This document shows positions 17,598 through 43,925 of a stretch of 43,925 nucleotides of DNA, one piece after another. The stretch is from a virus, in IMG/VR virus record IMGVR_UViG_3300044771_000011, positions 1 through 43,925 of that record; one strand, given 5' to 3'. Made by a program: the position numbers and the translations under genes. Positions within the stretch are counted from its first letter, which is position 1. Each line of letters opens with the position of its first letter. The notes below the pieces were generated by a model that saw only the letters and a list, made by a program, of their open reading frames with translations, was not told the origin of the DNA and did no database searches.

Positions 17598-17819
17598 ATG
17601 ATTGAAAAAATAAAACAATTCATTTTACAGGACGTCCATATAACGGACGTCCTTTTTAGTTGCATATGGTTATTTGGCTGGTTTAATAATGCGGATCAAG
17701 CAGTAAAGTACGACCTTAATTCTCTGACCGTTTTTTATGGTGCGATACGGGTTTATATATTGGCTGGAAGGGTTAATGAGTCAGTAAATAACTCTAATAA
17801 AGGAGAGAAACCACAATGA
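17598..17819 (+). CDS. Holin candidate (two hydrophobic segments, charged C-terminus)
   Basis: 73 aa. Segments ITDVLFSCIWLFGWF and LTVFYGAIRVYILAG, with a polar/charged tail. Immediately upstream of and overlapping the endolysin gene. Confidence 0.45.
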   Translation: MIEKIKQFILQDVHITDVLFSCIWLFGWFNNADQAVKYDLNSLTVFYGAIRVYILAGRVNESVNNSNKGEKPQ

Positions 17820-18187
17820 GTAAATTCTTTAAAGGAACTGAATTTGCCTGCAATGGCCCAGAATGTGAAGGATTAATCAACGTAGGCAACGGTATTAGTC
17901 CTCGCTTAATGAATGTTCTGGACGCCATTAGAGAGCGTATAGGACAACCTATCTATATCAACTCTGGTTACAGATGCCCTGTGCATAATAAAGAAGTTGG
18001 AGGAGTTACTAATTCCCAACATGTTGACGGTACTGCAGCTGATTTAAATTATGACGGTATAGATGTTGATTACCTTGCGCAAGTAGCAGAAGAATGTGGT
18101 GCTGATGGTATAGGTAAATATTGGTCGCAAGGATTCGTGCATGTTGACGTGAGGGGTTATGCTGCAAGGTGGAGTGAAAATGATTAG
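17816..18187 (+). CDS. Endolysin, peptidase M15 family (single catalytic domain, no wall-binding domain)
   Basis: SGYRCPVHNKEVGGVTNSQHVDGTAADL and FVHVDVR match the zinc-binding H/D/H motifs of M15A/M15C D-Ala-D-Ala and L-Ala-D-Glu peptidases. 123 aa. Confidence 0.8.
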   Translation: MSKFFKGTEFACNGPECEGLINVGNGISPRLMNVLDAIRERIGQPIYINSGYRCPVHNKEVGGVTNSQHVDGTAADLNYDGIDVDYLAQVAEECGADGIGKYWSQGFVHVDVRGYAARWSEND

Positions 18188-18557
18188 TGAAGTGAGGGAA
18201 TATATAAATGCAAATAAGAAGAACATTATCATTATTTGTGTGTTGCTTATTGTTATTGTCGTTGCCTGGGATGTGTTCGGCAGCAAGTTATCAAATACAG
18301 GATCAGGAGCTGATACAGCTAGACAACAACTTAACACTGTTATCAATCAACAATCAGAATCTATTAATACAATTAAAACAGTCGAAACAGGACTTGGGAA
18401 TAGCATCAAGTCAGTTGGAACAATTGAAAGCACAGTTGATCACGCTACAGTTACAAACTCAAACAGCATTGCAACAGCAACAGACAGCGCAAGCATCATT
18501 GCAGACTGCCAACGCATCCTTAAATCAGTACGAGAAAGAGACAAAAGCAAAAATTAG
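18180..18557 (+). CDS. Type II membrane protein downstream of the endolysin (i-spanin-like candidate)
   Basis: AAGGTGGAG SD lies 5 nt before ATG 18180, and the ORF overlaps the endolysin stop. N-terminal TM segment NIIIICVLLIVIVVAWDVF. Third-position GC is about 26% by hand count, typical for this genome. Confidence 0.5.
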   Translation: MISEVREYINANKKNIIIICVLLIVIVVAWDVFGSKLSNTGSGADTARQQLNTVINQQSESINTIKTVETGLGNSIKSVGTIESTVDHATVTNSNSIATATDSASIIADCQRILKSVRERDKSKN

Positions 18558-18621
18558 ATCAGTTGCTTTGCAACGAGATATTGCTATTGTGGGAATAGTT
18601 GCAATGTTCTTTAGGAAATAA
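18208..18621 (+). CDS. Overprinted ORF in the +1 frame: signal-like N-terminus, coiled coil, C-terminal TM (spanin-like candidate)
   Basis: 137 codons open in an AT-rich genome. GAGGGA lies 9 nt upstream. N-terminus MQIRRTLSLFVCCLLLLSLPGMCSAAS, heptad Q/L-rich core, C-terminus IAIVGIVAMFFRK. Extends 64 nt beyond the overlapping ORF. Confidence 0.4.
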   Translation: MQIRRTLSLFVCCLLLLSLPGMCSAASYQIQDQELIQLDNNLTLLSINNQNLLIQLKQSKQDLGIASSQLEQLKAQLITLQLQTQTALQQQQTAQASLQTANASLNQYEKETKAKIRSVALQRDIAIVGIVAMFFRK

Positions 18622-18976: not shown

Positions 18977-19396
18977 TTGAAAGAAGTAAATGTATTTAAA
19001 AACAAGACTATGGTTGATACTAGGGATGATTTAAGGATAATTTATTTTTTAATCAAGAAAGATAAGGTTGTATATGTTGGTCAATCAAACGTTGGATTAT
19101 CTAGGATTTATCAACATGTGGTTGCAAATAAAAAGGATTTTGATTCGTTTAGTTATATTAAAGTTAATAATGATGAAGACTTAGACCTATTAGAAGCTGA
19201 TTACATTATAAAGTTTGACCCTATTTATAACCTTAAAATACACAGTAATAAATATTATAAATCATTAGATTCAATAAAGAAAATATTAAACATTGGCAAA
19301 AATGATTTAAATAAAATTATCAGACACAAAGAAATAAAGCCTGTGTTTTCTGGGGTATATGATATAAGAGATTTTCCTTGTGAGGTTGAATTATGA
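18977..19396 (+). CDS. GIY-YIG domain protein with a C-terminal HTH-like tail
   Basis: RIIYFLIKKDKVVYVGQSNVGLSRIYQH...LLEADYIIKFDPIYN keeps the Y, Y-x-G, R, E and N positions of GIY-YIG nucleases. TTG start lies 8 nt after AGGAGG. Confidence 0.5.
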   Translation: MKEVNVFKNKTMVDTRDDLRIIYFLIKKDKVVYVGQSNVGLSRIYQHVVANKKDFDSFSYIKVNNDEDLDLLEADYIIKFDPIYNLKIHSNKYYKSLDSIKKILNIGKNDLNKIIRHKEIKPVFSGVYDIRDFPCEVEL

Positions 19397-20199
19397 TTAA
19401 ACAAGGAAGTAAATTATTGTTAGACGAACAGCCATTAGTAGTATTGCCACAATTAGCAAAATTAATAGGGTTAAACGAAGCTATAATTGTTCAGCAAATT
19501 CATTATTGGAATGAAATAAATAAAAAAAATAACAATAATTTTAGAGATGGATATCATTGGACTTTTAATTCTTATCAACAATGGATAGAACAATTTCCTT
19601 TTTGGTCAGAAAAAACAATTAAAAGAACAATAACCGGATTAGAGAACATTGGAATAATAGTAAGTGGTAATTATAACAAGATGAAAATAGACAGAACAAA
19701 ATGGTATAGAATTGATGAGAAAATGCTTGAAAAGCTATGTAAAACACCAAAAGGTCAAAATGACCCGATCATAAGGTCAAGTTGTCCCGATCATAAGGTC
19801 AAGTTGTCCCCGCCAATACCAGAGACTAATTCAAAGATTAATTCAAAGAATAATATTAATGCGTCATCGCCAACGAATGACGGTTGTGGATATGTGGATA
19901 ACTTTACGGAGGATGGACAAATAGTATACGACTACTTTATTGGAAAATATTTTCTGACAATGGGAAGTCAACACCCATCTGTTAATCAAAGTACCGTTAA
20001 CAGCATTAACAAAATAATGGAAGATGAATATATAACCGATCCAGAATTTGATAATGAACTATCAATTGATATTAATGCAATGATAGATATGATTGATTGG
20101 TATTTTGATAGTAATAATCCTTTGTACGGTGACAGAAGAATATACCACTTTCTAAGTCCAATGATATTGAAGAATCTGTATAATAAAGTTGCACGTTGA
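19393..20199 (+). CDS. Replication initiator / replisome-organiser-like winged-helix protein carrying its own iterons
   Basis: The N-terminus LVVLPQLAKLIGLNEAIIVQQIHYW...FPFWSEKTIKRTITGLENIGII...RTKWYRID is typical of Firmicute phage/plasmid initiators. Tandem 22-bp repeats lie inside the gene. Confidence 0.5.
   Translation: MIKQGSKLLLDEQPLVVLPQLAKLIGLNEAIIVQQIHYWNEINKKNNNNFRDGYHWTFNSYQQWIEQFPFWSEKTIKRTITGLENIGIIVSGNYNKMKIDRTKWYRIDEKMLEKLCKTPKGQNDPIIRSSCPDHKVKLSPPIPETNSKINSKNNINASSPTNDGCGYVDNFTEDGQIVYDYFIGKYFLTMGSQHPSVNQSTVNSINKIMEDEYITDPEFDNELSIDINAMIDMIDWYFDSNNPLYGDRRIYHFLSPMILKNLYNKVAR
19764..19807 (+). repeat. Two perfect tandem 22-bp direct repeats (iterons, candidate origin), plus a degenerate copy at 19742-19763
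   Basis: CCCGATCATAAGGTCAAGTTGT occurs twice in tandem. The 22-bp period is not a multiple of 3, so the same DNA is read in two frames (DPIIRSS / PDHKVKL). Confidence 0.8.
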
Positions 20200-20299
20200 C
20201 AACAACAATCCAACAATATAAAGGGGTACTAAAAAAGGGTTCTATGATTAAGACGCACCATTCTTGCGTAATATTATTACTAATAAGGAGAGTTGTACC

Positions 20300-20602
20300 A
20301 TGAAAAAATATTACGGACTAAGCCAATCAGCAAAACAGAAGGCGTTAGATTTTATTGATTTGTTACAAGAAAAATTTCCAAGAACATTTCCGAAAAAACC
20401 AGACTCAAAAGTACCATTGATGATTGGAATTCATGAACAATTATTGCTAATTAAAGACGAATTAGGCGTTGAAGAAAAGACAATTATAAATGCTATGAAG
20501 TTATGGTGTAAAGGTGCTAGATATTATACTGTTTTATCTGTTGCGGGTGTTCCAAGGTTAAATTTAAATGGGGAACAGGTAGGTTTAGTTACAGAAAAAT
20601 AA
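20300..20602 (+). CDS. ProQ/FinO-domain RNA-binding protein
   Basis: LQEKFPRTFP...PLMIGIHEQL...AMKLWCKGARYYTVL...GVPRLNLNGEQVGLVTE aligns by eye with the E. coli ProQ N-terminal FinO domain (ERFPHCF...PLKIGIFQDL...ALRLYTSSWRYL...RVDLDGNPCGEL). AAGGAG SD. Confidence 0.65.
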   Translation: MKKYYGLSQSAKQKALDFIDLLQEKFPRTFPKKPDSKVPLMIGIHEQLLLIKDELGVEEKTIINAMKLWCKGARYYTVLSVAGVPRLNLNGEQVGLVTEK

Positions 20603-20806
20603 ACGATTGGACATAGATTAAAATATTCACTACCAATAATTGATAGAAAAATAGAAGATTTATATTTATCCGTTAGAGCCTACAATCTTTTGAAGCGTGA
20701 AGGGATTAAATTTGAGTCAGACATTAAAAATAGAATTGACTCTCTTGGTGGTATTATGGGCATGGGAAAGAAAAGTCTAGAAGAAATAAAATCAGCATTA
20801 AAATAA
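20603..20806 (+). other. RNA polymerase alpha-subunit C-terminal-domain-like (helix-hairpin-helix) coding segment, in frame behind the TAA of the ProQ/FinO gene, with no start codon or SD of its own
   Basis: Translation IEDLYLSVRAYNLLKREGIKFESDIKNRIDSLGGIMGMGKKSLEEIKSALK compares with E. coli alpha-CTD [51 protein letters not shown]. The first in-frame canonical start is TTG 20690, inside the domain. Confidence 0.6.
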
Positions 20807-20811
20807 CTTTC

Positions 20812-20840
20812 TCCTGCTCACCCCGAGCAGGATTTTTTTT
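20812..20840 (+). terminator. Rho-independent terminator
   Basis: TCCTGCTC, 5-nt loop, GAGCAGGA, then T8. Confidence 0.75.
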
Positions 20841-20890
20841 ATTTCTGTCCAATATAACAACAACGACAACAATTAAAAAAGGATGATATT

Positions 20891-21334
20891 ATGAAATCAT
20901 TACCTAAAATCGCTGCCGAATTGTCAGTACCTATAGCAACGCTCAGATATCGCCTACAAGCGTTCAATGAGTTTATTACATACTCTGTTAACGGAAAGAA
21001 CGGAAAAGAGTACAGTGAGGATGTAGAGTGCATTATAAAGGAAATCAATTCGTACTGTGACCAGAAGAAATCTACAGAAGAGATAATATCATTATTAGCA
21101 ACAAAATATGCCCGTGATATAGAAATTATAGAGGACACAACAGAAACAACAACAATACAACAACATGATTCTACTGAACTAATAAGATTGAATAACAACT
21201 TAGAAAAGATGATTGAACGACTTGATCGGCAACAAGAACTTCAACAACAGATTAATGAGATGAGACTGGCAATATCAGAAATAAGTAGAGTTGGCAGGCA
21301 TAAGAAGAACTGGTTTAGCTGGTTGTGGGGATAG
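20891..21334 (+). CDS. HTH (MerR-like) DNA-binding protein with a C-terminal coiled coil
   Basis: N-terminus LPKIAAELSVPIATLRYRLQAF, then the heptad-rich LIRLNNNLEKMIERLDRQQELQQQINEM. Confidence 0.45.
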   Translation: MKSLPKIAAELSVPIATLRYRLQAFNEFITYSVNGKNGKEYSEDVECIIKEINSYCDQKKSTEEIISLLATKYARDIEIIEDTTETTTIQQHDSTELIRLNNNLEKMIERLDRQQELQQQINEMRLAISEISRVGRHKKNWFSWLWG

Positions 21335-21353
21335 TTGTCCCCCTTTATTTTTT
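21327..21353 (+). terminator. Rho-independent terminator overlapping the stop codon of the previous gene
   Basis: GGGGA, 6-nt loop, TCCCC, then CTTTATTTTTT. Confidence 0.55.
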
Positions 21354-21355
21354 AC

Positions 21356-21385
21356 TTGACCGTCATGACTGGGTCATGATACAAT
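21356..21385 (+). promoter_or_regulatory. Promoter with a perfect inverted-repeat operator in its spacer
   Basis: TTGACC, 18 nt, TACAAT. The spacer contains TCATGAC-tgg-GTCATGA (21363-21379). The downstream gene encodes an RHH protein. Confidence 0.6.
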
Positions 21386-21404
21386 ACAAATAAGGGGTGA
21401 TACT

Positions 21405-26687: not shown

Positions 26688-27467
26688 ATGAGTAATTTAT
26701 CAACAATCAAAAATACAAGATGCTTTATTGATGACAATGGAACGGCACAACTTAATTTAGAAGATGTTGCTAGAGGATTAGGATTTACTGAAATAGCGGG
26801 GAGCGGTAACGAAACAGTTAGATGGAGAACAATCAAAGGATATTTAGAAGGGTTTGGATTCATCGCAACAAGTTGCGATACGTATTCTCCACAAGTGGGG
26901 AAAGAAACATTCATCCCAGAAAACATCTTCTACCGTCTAGCTATGAAAGCCAAAAATGAAACGGCTGAAAAGTTCCAAGCAATTGTAGCTGATGAAATTC
27001 TTCCAGCAATCAGAAAAACAGGTACATATTCAGCATCTCCGCAAATACCACAAACATTACCAGAAGCCCTAAGAGCCTACGCAAATGAAGTTGAAAATCA
27101 CATCAAGGCAAAGGCGCTGATTGAAGAAAATAAACCATTAGTATTATTCGCTAATTCTGTTGCTGGTAGTGATAATTTAAGCTCTGTAAATCAATTATCT
27201 AAAATACTGAATCAAAATGGTGTTGATATAGGAGAAAAACGGTTATTTGTATGGCTGCGTGAACATGGTTACTTGTGTAAATGTGGTGATGATTATAACC
27301 TACCAACTCAAAGATCAATGGACTTAAACATAATGGAGATTAAAAAATCATCAATCATTACAGGCAAAGGCGACACATTAGTAACTCGCACGACAAAAAT
27401 TACAGGTAAAGGGTGTATCTACTTCGTTAATAAATTCCTAAACGTTGGGAAATTGGAGGTTGTCTAG
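26688..27467 (+). CDS. Antirepressor (Bro-N domain plus KilAC/ANT C-terminal domain)
   Basis: N-terminus VARGLGFTE...ENIFYRLAMKAKNETAEKFQAIVADEILPAIRKTGTY. C-terminal part ALRAYANEVENH...NQLSKILNQNGVDIGEKRLFVWLREHGYL. Confidence 0.8.
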   Translation: MSNLSTIKNTRCFIDDNGTAQLNLEDVARGLGFTEIAGSGNETVRWRTIKGYLEGFGFIATSCDTYSPQVGKETFIPENIFYRLAMKAKNETAEKFQAIVADEILPAIRKTGTYSASPQIPQTLPEALRAYANEVENHIKAKALIEENKPLVLFANSVAGSDNLSSVNQLSKILNQNGVDIGEKRLFVWLREHGYLCKCGDDYNLPTQRSMDLNIMEIKKSSIITGKGDTLVTRTTKITGKGCIYFVNKFLNVGKLEVV

Positions 27468-30545: not shown

Positions 30546-31361
30546 TTGGCGGAAATTAAATGGATAAAAATAACCACGGATGTGTTCGATGACGAAAAGA
30601 TTGATTTTATCAGTAGTTTACCAGAAGGTGATTCTCTAATTGTAGTATGGGTTAGGTTGCTTACAATGGCTGGTAAAAATAATGCTGGTGGCTTCATCTT
30701 TCTGACTGAGAACATTCCATACAGTGAAGATATGCTATCTCATAAATTTAAAAAGCCATTGAATGTAATAAAGTTAGCCCTCAAAACATTCAAAGAACTT
30801 AACATGATTGAGTTTGATGAATGTGGAAGATTGATTATAGCTAATTGGGAAAAACACCAAAATGTTGATGCTCTTGAAAAAATAAGGGAGAAAACAAGGG
30901 TGAGAGTAGCTAAATATCGTGAGTCGAAATTGTTACAATGTAACGTTACAGTAACAGACGATGTAACGCCAAGTAACGCACTAGATAAAGATATAGATAA
31001 AGATAAAGAGAAAGAACTTTCTAGTCATAAATTGAAATTTACTGACGAGCATATAAAACTAGCTAACTATCTCAAGGAATTAATCTTATTGAATAATACA
31101 GATGCAAGAGTTCCTGTCAATATTAATAAGTGGGCAAATGATATACGGCTAATGTGCGAAATTGATAAACGTTATCCTGACAATATTGAAATAATTATTG
31201 AATGGTGTCAAAAAGATAGTTTTTGGAAAACAAATATTTTAAGCACAGACAAACTTCGCAAACAATTTGACCAATTAACTTTAAAAATGAAACAAGCAGA
31301 CCAGCAGATTAAACTATTTAATAGCAAACAACCCATAAGGGAGGAATACCCCGAACTATGA
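30546..31361 (+). CDS. Phage replisome organiser (N-terminal organiser domain plus DnaD-like C-terminal domain)
   Basis: EIKWIKITTDVFDDEKIDFISSLPEGDSLIVVWVRLLTMAGKNN matches the replisome-organiser N-terminal domain. TTG start. Upstream of the helicase gene. Confidence 0.7.
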   Translation: MAEIKWIKITTDVFDDEKIDFISSLPEGDSLIVVWVRLLTMAGKNNAGGFIFLTENIPYSEDMLSHKFKKPLNVIKLALKTFKELNMIEFDECGRLIIANWEKHQNVDALEKIREKTRVRVAKYRESKLLQCNVTVTDDVTPSNALDKDIDKDKEKELSSHKLKFTDEHIKLANYLKELILLNNTDARVPVNINKWANDIRLMCEIDKRYPDNIEIIIEWCQKDSFWKTNILSTDKLRKQFDQLTLKMKQADQQIKLFNSKQPIREEYPEL

Positions 31362-32647
31362 TTGACTTGAATATGGAATCTCAAACTATAGCAGGAATGC
31401 TGAATAATCAAGAATGTCTAGATATTGGAGTTGCTGATTTAAAAGAAGAATGGATATTTGACTCTTTCTATCGGCAAGTGTTTAAAACTATTAAGGGGAT
31501 GTATTTAGACAGTAAGCCAGTAACGGCAAGTAGCGTTTATAAAGAAATGGGAGAGATTACGAAACAACGTGGTACAAGTTGGCTACTACTGAAAGAAGCT
31601 TTCTTTAGGAAATCAGATTTAGAATATAATATCCAAAAATTAAATGAGTTATACAAAACTAGAGAACTTGTTAAACTGTCTGAAAACATCATTCGTAGGG
31701 CTGATCAAAAAGAAAATGTTAGCGAACTACTAAAAGATATGGAGAATAGCCTTTATTCTCTCACAGTTAGCGCAGGACAAGAGAAAATAATTAGTCCTAA
31801 AGAATGTGCTAATCGGATGTTAAACACACTAGAAAAGCGAATGGAGAAAAAACAAGATAAGGCAATCAGTACCTCTTATGAAATGTTGAATTATGCAATT
31901 AACGGCGGTTTTAGACCGGAGCAAGGTCAGTTAGTGATAATTGCCGCTAAGACAGGCAAGGGGAAAACTGCTTATGCTATGAACTTGATGAGGGATATAG
32001 CAGTAGTGCAAAAACAAGAATCATTATATATAAACACTGAAATGTCAGATGAGCAAATGGATTGCAGATGGATGACGATAGCAACTCCTGATATTGATAT
32101 TACACATAGTAAAATTGCAACAGGTGAATTAACGGATGCAGAACAAACAAAAGTAATGGGTTCGATGGAAAAAATATATCAATCTGGGTTTAACTGCATT
32201 AATGTGCCTGACCTTAATATGACGAAATTAATATCTATTGCTAAACGGTTTAAATCCCAAAATAAAATGAAGGTTATGGTTGTTGACTACATAGGACGAA
32301 TGGATACAACAGATGCAAAAATGCCTGAACATTTAGTATTAAAGAACATAGCTAAAAAAATGAAAACTCTTGCACAGGAATTGAAAATAACAATTATAAT
32401 GCTGGCACAATTAAACGATGACGAAAAGTTAGAGGGTGCTAAAGCAATGAAAAATGAAACTGATTTATTCGCATACTTGAGAGAGGCGCAAGGCAATGAA
32501 CTACTAGATATTGCGCCATATAATTACTTTTTAATAATTGATAAAAATAGAGATGGTAAAAGCATGAAATTAAGATTAAAGTTCGTTGGTGACAAATTAA
32601 CATTTGTTGGTGAGAAATATTCAGAAGTAGTAGCGAGGAGGAATTAA
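31358..32647 (+). CDS. Replicative DNA helicase, DnaB type
   Basis: Walker A IIAAKTGKGKTAYAMN and Walker B MVVDYIGRM. 429 aa. ATGA overlap with the organiser gene. Confidence 0.8.
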   Translation: MIDLNMESQTIAGMLNNQECLDIGVADLKEEWIFDSFYRQVFKTIKGMYLDSKPVTASSVYKEMGEITKQRGTSWLLLKEAFFRKSDLEYNIQKLNELYKTRELVKLSENIIRRADQKENVSELLKDMENSLYSLTVSAGQEKIISPKECANRMLNTLEKRMEKKQDKAISTSYEMLNYAINGGFRPEQGQLVIIAAKTGKGKTAYAMNLMRDIAVVQKQESLYINTEMSDEQMDCRWMTIATPDIDITHSKIATGELTDAEQTKVMGSMEKIYQSGFNCINVPDLNMTKLISIAKRFKSQNKMKVMVVDYIGRMDTTDAKMPEHLVLKNIAKKMKTLAQELKITIIMLAQLNDDEKLEGAKAMKNETDLFAYLREAQGNELLDIAPYNYFLIIDKNRDGKSMKLRLKFVGDKLTFVGEKYSEVVARRN

Positions 32648-39536: not shown

Positions 39537-40928
39537 ATGGCAACAACAACAGTGCTAACAATCCCCTACAAGCCACGATTCCCCATGACAGACATACATG
39601 AGCAACTAGAATCGCACAGGTTCAACGTATTAGTAGCACATAGACGTATGGGTAAGTCAGTAGGAACTATTAATCATGCAATAAAGATGTCCCTTAAAAA
39701 CAAACTATGGCAACCTAGATATGCTTATATAGCACCCTATAGGAATCAGGCTAAATTGATTATCTGGGATTACCTAAAGAAGTATACAGGCGGCATACCA
39801 AAGGTTAAGTTCAATGAGTCTGAGTTGTATGCTGAATTCCTTGATAGAAGGATTTATTTGTTTGGTGCTGACAATCCTGATGCCATTCGTGGTGCTTACT
39901 GGGACGGTGTTGTACTTGATGAATACGCGCAGATTAAACCGGAAGTATGGGGCGAGATTATAATGCCTGCTTTGCTTGATAGACAGGGGTGGGCTGTGTT
40001 CAGTGGTACTCCAAAAGGACAGAATCACTTCTATGATGCAACACTTACAGCGCAGAAGTTAATGAGTGAGGGAGATCCTAATTGGTGGTGTGGGATATAC
40101 CGAGCTGATGAAACCGGTGTTATGTCTGATACTGATCTAGAATTGGCAAGGAAAATAACTTCTGAAAATCAATATCGACAAGAGTTCTTATGCGATTTCA
40201 CCGCTTCTTCTGAAAATATATTAATTACTATTGATCTTGTTACTGATGCTGCTAGAAAAGAAATGAGACCAGAACAAATCTTAGGAGCTCCTAGGGTATT
40301 AGGAATTGATGTTGCTAGGTACGGAGGAGATAAATCAGTAATCTTTAGACGACAAGGATTGCAAGCTTTCAACCCTAAGATATTTGATAAAATTGACAAC
40401 ATGACATTTGCTGGGCGTATTGCTAATGAAATACAAGAATTTAAACCTGATGCTGTGTTTATTGACGCTGGTCGTGGCGAGGGTGTTATTGATAGATTAA
40501 GACAACTAGGATACAGTGTAACAGAGGTAAACTTTGGTGGTACTGCCTTAAATCATAACCACTACGAGAATAGGCGTTCTGAGATGTGGGATCTTCTAAA
40601 ACAATGGCTAGAGTCTGGTGGATGTATACCTAACGAATCACAACTTAAAAGCGAGTTGGTAACACCTTCGTATTCTTTAAATAAAAGAGATAAATTTCAG
40701 TTAGAGTCAAAAGATGATATTAAGAAAAGGTTAGGAAATTCGCCAGATTTAGCGGATGCCCTAGCCTTAACTTTTGCCATGCCAGTTGCATCTAGTGCAG
40801 ATGTTGGTAGTTATTCAAACAAACTGCACTTTGCTAATGCGGGATATAACCCCATTCAAAGAAACAATAATTCAAGACATTTTGCCAATTCTTCATACAA
40901 CCCAATTCAAAGTAAAAGGAGGAGATAA
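39537..40928 (+). CDS. terL: Terminase large subunit
   Basis: Walker A VAHRRMGKSVGT and Walker B VVLDEYAQ. C-terminal nuclease-region acidic residues IDVARYGGD and FIDAGRGEG. 463 aa. Confidence 0.85.
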   Translation: MATTTVLTIPYKPRFPMTDIHEQLESHRFNVLVAHRRMGKSVGTINHAIKMSLKNKLWQPRYAYIAPYRNQAKLIIWDYLKKYTGGIPKVKFNESELYAEFLDRRIYLFGADNPDAIRGAYWDGVVLDEYAQIKPEVWGEIIMPALLDRQGWAVFSGTPKGQNHFYDATLTAQKLMSEGDPNWWCGIYRADETGVMSDTDLELARKITSENQYRQEFLCDFTASSENILITIDLVTDAARKEMRPEQILGAPRVLGIDVARYGGDKSVIFRRQGLQAFNPKIFDKIDNMTFAGRIANEIQEFKPDAVFIDAGRGEGVIDRLRQLGYSVTEVNFGGTALNHNHYENRRSEMWDLLKQWLESGGCIPNESQLKSELVTPSYSLNKRDKFQLESKDDIKKRLGNSPDLADALALTFAMPVASSADVGSYSNKLHFANAGYNPIQRNNNSRHFANSSYNPIQSKRRR

Positions 40929-40929
40929 C

Positions 40930-41178
40930 ATGTGTGGAATAATCGGAACTTTACTAGGTGGTCTTTTAGGACAAAAATCAACTAATGTATCAACACCTAC
41001 AATAACAGCACCACCGACATCTGTTGACGTTACAAGCGGAACAGAATCATTAGAAGCTGGTAAATCTGCAAAACAGAAAGCGGCATCGGCTACAGGATAT
41101 CAATCAACGGTGAAAACATCTTCTAGTGGTGATACCTCAACAGCAACAACTAACAAGAAAGCGCTATTGGGTGGTTAA
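40930..41178 (+). CDS. Small S/T-rich protein with a glycine-zipper N-terminus
   Basis: AAAGGAGGAGA SD. N-terminus MCGIIGTLLGGLLGQ. 82 aa. The track's longer ORF overlaps terL without an SD. Confidence 0.45.
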   Translation: MCGIIGTLLGGLLGQKSTNVSTPTITAPPTSVDVTSGTESLEAGKSAKQKAASATGYQSTVKTSSSGDTSTATTNKKALLGG

Positions 41179-41180
41179 TT

Positions 41181-42866
41181 ATGGATGAAATAAAAAAAAC
41201 AGAAAACGTAAACAGACAACATAAATGTTTATTCGATGAATTTGAAAAGTGGAAACCTTTATTTATGGACGTAAGGGACTTCATTAACCCTTATATTGGA
41301 TACTTTGATGGGGAAGAAGTTAACAGTGGATTAAGAAATGATGAAGAAATGCTTCGCACTATGCCAATTAAATACAGTCACGTCTTGGCTGCGGGTCTTC
41401 AATGGGGTATTACCTCACCTACAAGACCTTGGGTGAAGTTTGCTTTTAAGAATGCTAAAGTAATGCAAAGTTCGGCTGTTCTTACCTGGTTAAATGATGT
41501 TAGTAATACCTGCCTTGACATTTTGTTTAAAGGTGGATTTTATCCTGAGAATCATCAATTTTACTTAGAATTAGGGGTGTTTAATACTGCTGCAATGCTG
41601 ATCGAAGAAGATGACGAGACGGTTATCAACTGTAGAACATTTACAATAGGTGAGTTTGCTATTGGACTTGATAGTAAAAAACGTCCTAATCAATTTGCAA
41701 GAAATATTGAGATGACACCTTTCCAGATTGTAGAAAAATTTGGTATTGATAATGTTCCCGATAATGTTAAGCGTTGTTATGAAGACAAAAATTACAACAA
41801 AACGATATGTGTAAAGCATTTAATTTGTCCTAATTCGTACTATGATGAACAAAAAATAGACAACGATTCAATGAAATTTAGTGATTATTACTGGATGGCA
41901 GGACAAAAACCTGGTGAGTTTCTTAAAAAAGGTGGATTTAATGAATTCCCTGTAATGGTAGAACGATATCAGACAAAGGGTGCTGATGTTTATGGAACTG
42001 GTCCTGGTATATGGTCCCTAGGTGATGCAAAACAAATACAGTTGATGTGGCGTGATATATGTACAGCAGCAGAATTAAGTGTTAAACCTGCTATACAAGC
42101 ACCATCCGACATTATGAAAAATGGTGGAATTAATATGTTGCCTGCGGGGGCTAACTACTATAATCCTACTGGCGGTTCTGATGGTAAAATAACTACCGTA
42201 TTTCAGCCTACGTTAGATATGCGTGCTGCTTCCGAAATTCAAACAGCTATTGAAGAATGTATAAAAGAGCATTTTAATACTAAGGTATTCCAACTATTGT
42301 CTGATATGGAAAAAGGAACAAGAACAGCAAGAGAAGTTATCGAATTATCTTCTGAAAAAATGTCACAAATGGGTCCATTACTTGAAAGGTTACAAACTGG
42401 ATACCTACCGCAAGTCATTAATAGGGTAATCGCAATAGGTTTTAGAGCGGGAGTATTTCCACCACCACCCCCTGAAATTGAAGGAATGGAAATGGATATA
42501 GAATATGTGTCTATCCTCTCGCAAGCGCAGAAACAGTATGTAATTACTCCAATTATGGATACTGTGAATCAGGTTATTGACATGGCATTAAAAACTCAAT
42601 TACCTGAAATATTGGATAAAGTTAACTTTGATGAAGTTACAGATCAACTTGGTGGTTTGAATGGTGTTCCTCCGTCAATTTTATTCTCTGATGAATATGT
42701 TGAATCGGTAAGGAAAGCGCGAGCCCAACAGCAGGCACAAATCAACGCAGTACAACAAGGAATGACCGCAGCGCAGGGAGCTAAAACGTTAGCAGGGGCA
42801 GACACTTCAGGGAATAACGCATTAACCGCCCTTCTTGGTGGTCCGTCAGGTGGTTTACAACAATGA
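41181..42866 (+). CDS. Portal (head-to-tail connector) protein, podovirus type
   Basis: 561 aa, placed after terL. The size and the Q/A-rich C-terminal tail are typical of T7 gp8-like connectors. Confidence 0.75.
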   Translation: MDEIKKTENVNRQHKCLFDEFEKWKPLFMDVRDFINPYIGYFDGEEVNSGLRNDEEMLRTMPIKYSHVLAAGLQWGITSPTRPWVKFAFKNAKVMQSSAVLTWLNDVSNTCLDILFKGGFYPENHQFYLELGVFNTAAMLIEEDDETVINCRTFTIGEFAIGLDSKKRPNQFARNIEMTPFQIVEKFGIDNVPDNVKRCYEDKNYNKTICVKHLICPNSYYDEQKIDNDSMKFSDYYWMAGQKPGEFLKKGGFNEFPVMVERYQTKGADVYGTGPGIWSLGDAKQIQLMWRDICTAAELSVKPAIQAPSDIMKNGGINMLPAGANYYNPTGGSDGKITTVFQPTLDMRAASEIQTAIEECIKEHFNTKVFQLLSDMEKGTRTAREVIELSSEKMSQMGPLLERLQTGYLPQVINRVIAIGFRAGVFPPPPPEIEGMEMDIEYVSILSQAQKQYVITPIMDTVNQVIDMALKTQLPEILDKVNFDEVTDQLGGLNGVPPSILFSDEYVESVRKARAQQQAQINAVQQGMTAAQGAKTLAGADTSGNNALTALLGGPSGGLQQ

Positions 42867-43702: not shown

Positions 43703-43831
43703 ATGCCATTAAAATCAGGTTCAAGTAAATCTGTAATAGCTTCTAATATCAAAAAGGAAATGCACTCTGGTAAAAGCCAAGCACAAAGTGTAGCAATCGC
43801 AATGAGCAAAGCCGGTAAATCTAAAAAGTAA
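43703..43831 (+). CDS. Small basic protein (42 aa) with a QSVAIAMSKAG motif
   Basis: GGAAGGTGAG SD. Peptide MPLKSGSSKSVIASNIKKEMHSGKSQAQSVAIAMSKAGKSKK. Its 3-prime end lies in the terminal repeat. Confidence 0.5.
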   Translation: MPLKSGSSKSVIASNIKKEMHSGKSQAQSVAIAMSKAGKSKK

Positions 43832-43925
43832 CAAGCAACTATCAAATGGTAGTTGCTTTTCTTATACCTATTTTTAAGGAGGAATGACATATGCCAGACG
43901 AAATAACCGAATCGACACAGGATAA
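43799..43925. repeat. Terminal direct repeat, copy 2 (identical to 1-127)
   Basis: Exact 127-nt match to the start of the window. Confidence 0.95.
43833..43863 (+). terminator. Rho-independent terminator before the scaffold/capsid genes
   Basis: AAGCAACTA, 8-nt loop, TAGTTGCTT, then TTTTCTT. Confidence 0.6.

Follow-up and report, generated by a model that had tools for sequence, protein, structure and literature searches.

Background

Hairpins followed by a 3' tail, for example intrinsic terminators, are the structures clamped by FinO domains. In the RNA polymerase subunit RpoA, the alpha-CTD binds the minor groove of A/T-rich DNA and docks transcription regulators. FinO/ProQ family members have been described from four proteobacterial classes, and it is their accessory domains that decide what is regulated (PMC9977716). 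The FinO domain alone binds and stabilises RNA, its extensions, which were gained independently in different lineages, being needed for regulation (PMC9977716). The rigid RNA-binding unit is the core, which consists of helices alpha2-alpha4 together with the beta-sheet, and helix alpha5 is described as flexible (PMC9977716).

Here, we analysed a phage genome sequence of 43,925 nucleotides (IMG/VR record IMGVR_UViG_3300044771_000011; this whole stretch of DNA is called the window below). An initial annotation had pointed out, at 20300-20806, a FinO domain and an alpha-CTD-like domain lying in one reading frame and separated by a TAA codon, for which it offered four explanations, i.e. stop-codon readthrough, termination-reinitiation, a recent nonsense mutation and a sequencing error. 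We favour, with a probability of roughly 70 %, a recent nonsense mutation that truncated a rare and undescribed FinO-alpha-CTD fusion gene, leaving a short FinO protein and silent alpha-CTD codons.

Organization of the locus

The reading-frame layout first described was recovered, i.e. an ORF running to the TAA at 20600-20602 followed by 67 open codons up to the TAA at 20804-20806. The features of the locus are given below, where P0002 and P0003 are two intact homologues presented in a later section.

20196..20246, plus strand: putative promoter and non-coding motif (TTGACA at 20196-20201, TATAAA at 20217-20222, 15-nt spacer; motif at 20218-20246)
20285..20290, plus strand: Shine-Dalgarno AAGGAG, seen in the sequence 9 nt before ATG 20300
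20300..20602, plus strand: truncated ORF of 100 aa, ProQ/FinO domain without its last helix (Pfam PF04352, solved structures, homologue P0002)
20600..20602, plus strand: premature ochre stop TAA (codon alignment: Glu codon GAA for P0002, Asp codon GAC for P0003)
20603..20803, plus strand: in-frame remnant of 67 codons, in which the final part of the last FinO helix and a short linker precede an intact helix-hairpin-helix of alpha-CTD type (Pfam PF03118)
20804..20806, plus strand: TAA that was probably the original stop when the fusion gene was full-length (P0002 and P0003 have their C-terminal ends at the aligned position)
20812..20840, plus strand: intrinsic terminator with an 8-bp stem (five G-C pairs), a 5-nt loop and a T8 tail, hairpin at 20812-20832 (terminator scan)

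The promoter (20196-20222) was called by visual inspection of the sequence and is absent from the output of the sequence scanner run on the window. The motif ATAAAGGGGTRCTAAAAAAGGnnTCTAT (20218-20246) is kept at the same relative place upstream of the intact fusion gene on contig L003, which encodes P0002 (copy at about 607-635). In both phages it lies about 55-80 nt 5' of the fusion-gene ATG, within intergenic DNA that has otherwise diverged between the two, and it could be a 5' leader or an operator. The terminator comes directly after the second TAA and closes the transcription unit 3' of the alpha-CTD codons; on contig L007, which encodes P0003, a hairpin and T-run likewise lie directly downstream of the intact fusion gene, which suggests a transcription unit built for the full-length gene. 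With its candidate promoter and its terminator, the gene has the appearance of a moron-like unit that is transcribed on its own.

Within the 67 post-stop codons, the first ATG, GTG or TTG is the TTG at 20690, about 87-88 nt past the stop and inside helix 1, and no Shine-Dalgarno-like purine run was seen upstream of any candidate start in 20603-20803. The observation that the second domain has neither a usable start before TTG 20690 nor a Shine-Dalgarno sequence was thus borne out by the sequence. A recognisable Shine-Dalgarno precedes most genes of the window. The split-domain case is unique in this genome, all other long in-frame post-stop extensions corresponding to the next gene with its own ATG and Shine-Dalgarno.

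Domain content and position of the stop

The ProQ/FinO assignment, originally made by eye, held in a profile HMM search: Pfam PF04352 matched residues 17-100 with an E-value of 1.4e-18 and 67.3 bits (cutoff 27). Among solved structures, the ProQ chains 6s10_A and 5nb9_A were closest to the FinO part of the window protein, 6s10_A being the best sequence match. In the alignment to 5nb9_A, window residues Y75 and R86 correspond to E. coli ProQ Y70 and R80, which we take, following the RocC-RocR work, to be the Tyr and Arg of the RNA 3'-end pocket; both are invariant across the three fusion proteins. Compared with the N-terminal part of P0002, an intact fusion, the FinO part shows 54 % identity.

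The product of 20300-20602 covers positions 6-87 of the 109 positions of the PF04352 profile. The match to the profile extends to 98-105 in the intact fusions P0002 and P0003 and in the stand-alone proteins P0006 and P0010, to 95 in P0153 and to 91 in P0004. Compared with the 98-105 of the intact relatives, an end at 87 points to the loss of the last FinO helix. The TAA therefore falls within the FinO domain and not in a neutral interdomain spacer: it aligns with residue 101 of P0002, inside helix 99-106 of the AlphaFold model of that protein, in which residues 108-111 form a low-confidence linker ahead of the alpha-CTD. A complete domain with its C-terminal helix alpha5 is not encoded by the window ORF, and the 100-aa product is predicted from this model to be a FinO core without its last helix. 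It may be impaired, as the missing helix is present in most stand-alone relatives, which makes its persistence less obvious.

The alpha-CTD assignment was equally well supported, Pfam RNA_pol_A_CTD (PF03118) matching post-stop residues 11-67 over profile positions 9-66 of 67 (E-value 3.4e-14, 52.7 bits, cutoff 23.8). The best solved-structure matches were the B. subtilis chains 3ihq_B, 1z3e_B and 3gfk_B (E-value about 2e-8). The window segments LSVRAYNLLK and GMGKKSLEEIK align with LSVRSYNCLK and NLGRKSLEEVK of B. subtilis, the R-x-Y-N and G-K-K-S motifs being kept. The positions equivalent to the E. coli DNA-contact residues R265, N268, G296, K298 and S299 are retained too, as is a Tyr at the place of B. 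subtilis Y263, the roles of these residues being established knowledge. Identity between this part and the C-terminal halves of the two intact fusions, P0002 and P0003, is 52-54 %. As neither PF01000 nor PF01193 (alpha N-terminal domain) matched the window translation, P0002 or P0003, we consider it an alpha-CTD-type module and not an RNA polymerase subunit (RpoA).

Intact homologues and the stop codon column

When used as query against 5.8 billion protein clusters, the joined translation retrieved P0002, a protein of 171 aa encoded by a single ORF, carrying both Pfam domains and 53 % identical over 99 % of the joined window translation. Its gene lies on a 1.4-kb Logan contig (L003), where the upstream gene is 75 % identical to the DnaD-like replication-initiator gene of the window (19393-20199), i.e. 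synteny is conserved. Running HMMER exhaustively against 1.84 billion cluster representatives yielded a second intact fusion, P0003 (173 aa, contig L007). No further two-domain protein came up when a profile of the three sequences served as query, so that P0002 and P0003 are the sole intact ones obtained from searches among 5.8 billion protein clusters. All three examples occur in low-GC sequence, and both fusion genes whose flanks are known adjoin a phage DnaD-like replication-initiator gene.

For both domains, folds were compared using the intact homologue P0002, through its AlphaFold model, instead of the window protein. The model (mean pLDDT 83) contains two separately folded domains connected by a low-confidence linker, and most 10-residue blocks of its FinO part have a mean pLDDT of at least 87. 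With Foldseek, this part matched RocC (7rgt/7rgu) with a TMt of about 0.82 and an E-value of 6e-6, and NMB1681 (3mw6) with a TMt of 0.6-0.8, consistent in the homologue with a FinO fold, in which a helical core is combined with a beta-hairpin. The alpha-CTD part matched 9dvt_A (TMt 0.84, rmsd 1.2), 7vpd_S (0.87, 1.0) and 1z3e_B (0.73, 2.1), i.e. overall TMt 0.7-0.87 and rmsd 1-2 Å, as expected for an alpha-CTD fold with its compact double helix-hairpin-helix.

Other searches were negative. Megablast of 19400-21400 against INPHARED gave no match, and no INPHARED record matched the window FinO domain. The exact sequence pattern around the stop was absent from metagenome and IMG/VR contigs, a degenerate pattern for MGMGKKSLEEI from genomes and IMG/VR, and protein-guided scans of IMG/VR, GTDB genomes and JGI metagenomes returned no relatives of the fusion. 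Two sets of alpha-CTD matches were discarded: those in IMG/VR (L001/L002, which are also contigs L004/L005) correspond to an unrelated high-GC phage protein with an N-terminal alpha-CTD, and those obtained by tblastn in INPHARED reach only about 40 % identity and, where annotated, are bacterial rpoA in records filed as phage. In the literature searched, no paper on a FinO-alpha-CTD fusion was found, in line with the initial statement that none is known; this statement has to be amended for the databases, which contain the two intact singletons.

The codon column at the window stop reads TAA in the window, GAA in P0002 and GAC in P0003. The codon at 20600-20602 is thus sense in both homologues, where the two parts are fused and do not form independent genes, and a single G>T change of a Glu codon suffices to explain the stop. 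It is on this evidence that a recent nonsense mutation splitting a fusion gene was preferred among the four explanations initially listed.

Preservation of the alpha-CTD codons

The alpha-CTD remnant shows no decay. Its PF03118 score (52.7 bits) exceeds those of the intact fusions (43.5 and 42.5 bits). Pairwise dN in this domain was 0.42 between the window and P0002, 0.39 between the window and P0003 and 0.53 between P0002 and P0003. The three-taxon branch lengths that we derived from these values by hand are about 0.14 for the window, the shortest, and 0.28 and 0.25 for the other two. The FinO branch of the window (about 0.21) is longer than its alpha-CTD branch. Across the family, an alpha-CTD dN/dS of about 0.2-0.36, with dS saturated, indicates that the domain is under purifying selection.

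An undecayed domain under purifying selection implies either a very recent stop or continuing expression of the domain. The stop, known from one genotype, looks recent, given that the alpha-CTD codons remain entirely intact. A perfectly preserved remnant of 201 nt is also what continued expression would produce, and in this respect it counts against a nonsense mutation.

Authenticity of the TAA

According to one alternative, the TAA is not true phage sequence, and an intact fusion gene has been masked by a read-level or consensus error or by a minority allele fixed by the assembler. The flawless alpha-CTD codons, which outscore those of the intact homologues, would fit such an error, as would the fact that changing one base gives back the Glu codon present in P0002. 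Positions 1-127 of the window are identical to 43799-43925, and this exact terminal direct repeat of 127 bp indicates a circularly closed contig with a true length of 43,798 bp. The Logan assembly of run SRR35361782 holds a contig of 43,828 bp (L006) that represents the same genome and the same circle and is 100 % identical over 20200-20900 (701 bases), TAA included. As a second assembly with an identical sequence makes an artefact of the assembler improbable, an assembler error is unlikely, the evidence being at consensus level. Both assemblies may stem from the same reads, but they were produced by two different assemblers, and closure of the circle in both implies good coverage, at which consensus substitution errors are very rare. 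We consider this alternative unlikely, and we infer that the dominant genotype truly carries the mutation.

Decoding of the stop

Another alternative is that the stop is leaky or bypassed, through ochre readthrough or through reinitiation, e.g. at ATT 20606, so that both the short FinO protein and an alpha-CTD product would be made and be functional. A frame that stays open for 67 codons, a fully conserved domain without excess amino-acid change on the window branch and a terminator placed after the second stop are all in agreement with it. Both homologues compared nevertheless lack the stop (GAA, GAC), which is a UAA followed by A: TAA ends 30 of the 57 genes, TAAA is the commonest four-base stop context in this genome, and UAA is the least leaky bacterial stop. 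Such usage also rules out a reassignment of TAA. ARAGORN found no tRNA gene in the phage, which disposes of a phage-encoded suppressor tRNA; no Rfam family was found in the window, which disposes of a known RNA element; and the RNA fold of 20590-20700 is no better than that of shuffled sequence (z = -0.33), which disposes of a readthrough-stimulating structure. Frameshifting or hopping was dropped, the two parts sharing one frame and the A-run before the stop counting only five bases. As for reinitiation, only the near-cognate ATT 20606 is close to the stop, and a start at TTG 20690, in addition to lacking a Shine-Dalgarno, would give a fragment of only 38 aa without helix 1, hence without the Arg equivalent to R265. 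Neither readthrough nor termination-reinitiation received positive support from these results, and a leaky or bypassed stop seems improbable to us.

A broader hypothesis would have the fusion be a functional, selected and undescribed class of mobile-element protein occurring outside Proteobacteria, which couples a clamp for terminator-hairpin RNA to an alpha-CTD mimic (acting as a decoy for alpha-CTD-binding regulators or as a tether to A/T-rich, UP-like DNA), the UAA being leaky or bypassed to yield short and long isoforms; we find it quite improbable in this full form. Lastly, an evolved split into two genes, with the alpha-CTD protein made separately from an unrecognised signal, can be set aside as very improbable: stand-alone FinO proteins of 105-122 aa are normal genes in relatives and stand-alone phage alpha-CTD proteins exist, but the stand-alone FinO relatives have their own tails and mostly keep the last helix, whereas the stop here lies inside the domain, the second part lacks the start and the Shine-Dalgarno that most genes of this genome display, and the nearest homologues are fused.

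Proposed mechanism and implications

Starting from a recent nonsense mutation, we propose the following scenario. The region 20300-20806 would be one gene, encoding an N-terminal ProQ/FinO RNA-binding domain and a C-terminal alpha-CTD-type domain. Where the last FinO helix begins, a single G>T transversion would have replaced a GAA codon for Glu by TAA. Translation would then end after residue 100 and yield a shortened stand-alone FinO-domain protein, the 67 downstream codons becoming untranslated 3' sequence up to the terminator at 20812-20840, read at most at the trace level of ordinary UAA misreading. The truncated protein would presumably still bind RNA, minus whatever the alpha-CTD module added. 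As to the intact fusion, we infer its function entirely: the FinO domain would clamp a hairpin-plus-U-tail (terminator) RNA, and the alpha-CTD would anchor this RNA either on A/T-rich DNA or on a partner whose usual docking site is the host alpha-CTD.

What the fusion represents is a new domain architecture of a known family, the stop itself being an ordinary nonsense mutation. The interest of the locus lies in this architecture rather than in the stop, which would have been caught soon after it arose. An alpha-CTD as accessory domain suggests a direct link between the binding of 3'-end or terminator RNA and the transcription machinery or promoter-proximal DNA, and only three examples were found among billions of predicted proteins. 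Moreover, the truncated allele offers a ready-made FinO-only version for comparison with the full-length protein.

Genomic context and host

The phage had been described as Firmicute-like, which proved true for part of the genome. Its early genes (antirepressor and DnaD-like; 19393-20199 and 26688-27467) are nearest to those of Bacillus, Geobacillus, Staphylococcus and Brochothrix phages. Identities to Bacillota phages, the closest ones, are 43-67 % for the antirepressor and the N-terminus of the DnaD-like protein, and the alpha-CTD is Bacillota-like as well. The portal, terminase and FinO sequences do not follow this pattern, the named relatives nearest to them being from Proteobacteria or from phages or plasmids of these bacteria. 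The T7-like portal comes closest to phages of Proteobacteria (about 33 % identity) and the terminase to uncultured freshwater phages (up to 47 %), and the nearest named relatives of the FinO domain are Burkholderiaceae plasmid and chromid proteins (40-51 % identity). The genome appears as a mosaic when the portal/terminase region (39537-42866) is set against the early genes at 19393-20199 and 26688-27467. A FinO domain in a Firmicute phage is plausible, the host signals being mixed; if the host belongs to Bacillota, this would be a FinO-domain protein in a lineage from which the family is thought to be absent.

The endolysin (region 17816-18621) is a 123-aa single-domain Peptidase_M15_3 without a wall-binding domain. 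It is followed by two overlapping ORFs in different frames, one (18159-18557) with an N-terminal transmembrane segment and the other (18208-18621) with a signal-peptide-like N-terminus and a C-terminal transmembrane segment. The pair may encode spanin-like proteins, in which case an outer membrane would be suggested for the host.

Two replication-initiation modules were noted. A DnaD-like initiator gene (19393-20199) lies directly upstream of the FinO gene, and a second module, made of a replisome-organizer/DnaD-like gene and a DnaB-like helicase, is found 10 kb away (30546-32647). Just past the terminator, 20891-21334 gave a marginal Pfam match to PriC (24.9 bits, cutoff 23.3) and no PHROG match.

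Comparison with known systems

In size, and in fold as modelled for P0002, the window protein matches the minimal FinO proteins, i.e. N. meningitidis ProQ/NMB1681 (3mw6), L. pneumophila RocC (7rgt/7rgu) and Lpp1668 (6s10). It differs from them in that the ORF stops at position 87 of 109 of the profile, without the last helix, in that the gene comes from a low-GC phage and not from a proteobacterial chromosome, and in that the ancestral gene would have carried an alpha-CTD. As judged from the model, the full-length architecture appears to follow the logic of E. coli and Salmonella ProQ, with an N-terminal FinO domain, a flexible linker and a small, independently folded C-terminal domain. The C-terminal module is an alpha-CTD helix-hairpin-helix here whereas it is Tudor-like in ProQ, the linker has about 10-20 residues as against about 60, and the second module of the window is cut off by the stop.

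The structure closest to the alpha-CTD part is the RpoA CTD of B. subtilis, solved in complexes with Spx (1z3e/3gfk/3ihq), with SVRAYNLLKR...GMGKKSLEEIK in the window facing SVRSYNCLKR...NLGRKSLEEVK. Unlike that domain, the one studied here is joined to a FinO domain and not to an alpha N-terminal domain, and is presumably untranslated in the window. Among phage proteins of BFVD, FinO/ProQ-only proteins occur in Aeromonas phage 4_4572, Sinorhizobium phage phiM9 and Salmonella phage 7-11, and alpha-CTD-only proteins in uncultured Caudovirales and Rhodococcus phage Finch; none of the BFVD proteins spans the two together. An unrelated protein of 124 aa with an N-terminal alpha-CTD (ELTVRAHNCLK...GMGKKSLEEIK) is encoded at 3974-4348 of contig L004 (IMG/VR UViG_3300035670_000328), from a high-GC phage. 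Four non-RpoA proteins (P0152, P0157, P0160 and P0161) have two tandem alpha-CTD-like domains, some with a Cys-rich N-terminal region, and the first repeat of P0161 (SVRSYNLLKRAGF) is strikingly near the window sequence (SVRAYNLLKREGI). As a source of the phage domain, such tandem proteins may lie closer than rpoA.

The FinO-family regulators of plasmids (FinO, FopA, PcnR) are also carried by mobile elements, where they lie beside replication or transfer genes. They differ from the present case in their antisense RNA partner, none being identified in the window, where Rfam finds nothing. The named plasmid homologues nearest to the window FinO domain are those of Burkholderiaceae (40-51 % identity, as above), and close FinO-only relatives of the window gene are stand-alone genes beside ParA, integrase or resolvase genes. 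The position of the window gene, directly downstream of a DnaD-like replication-initiator gene, echoes that of plasmid FopA and PcnR.
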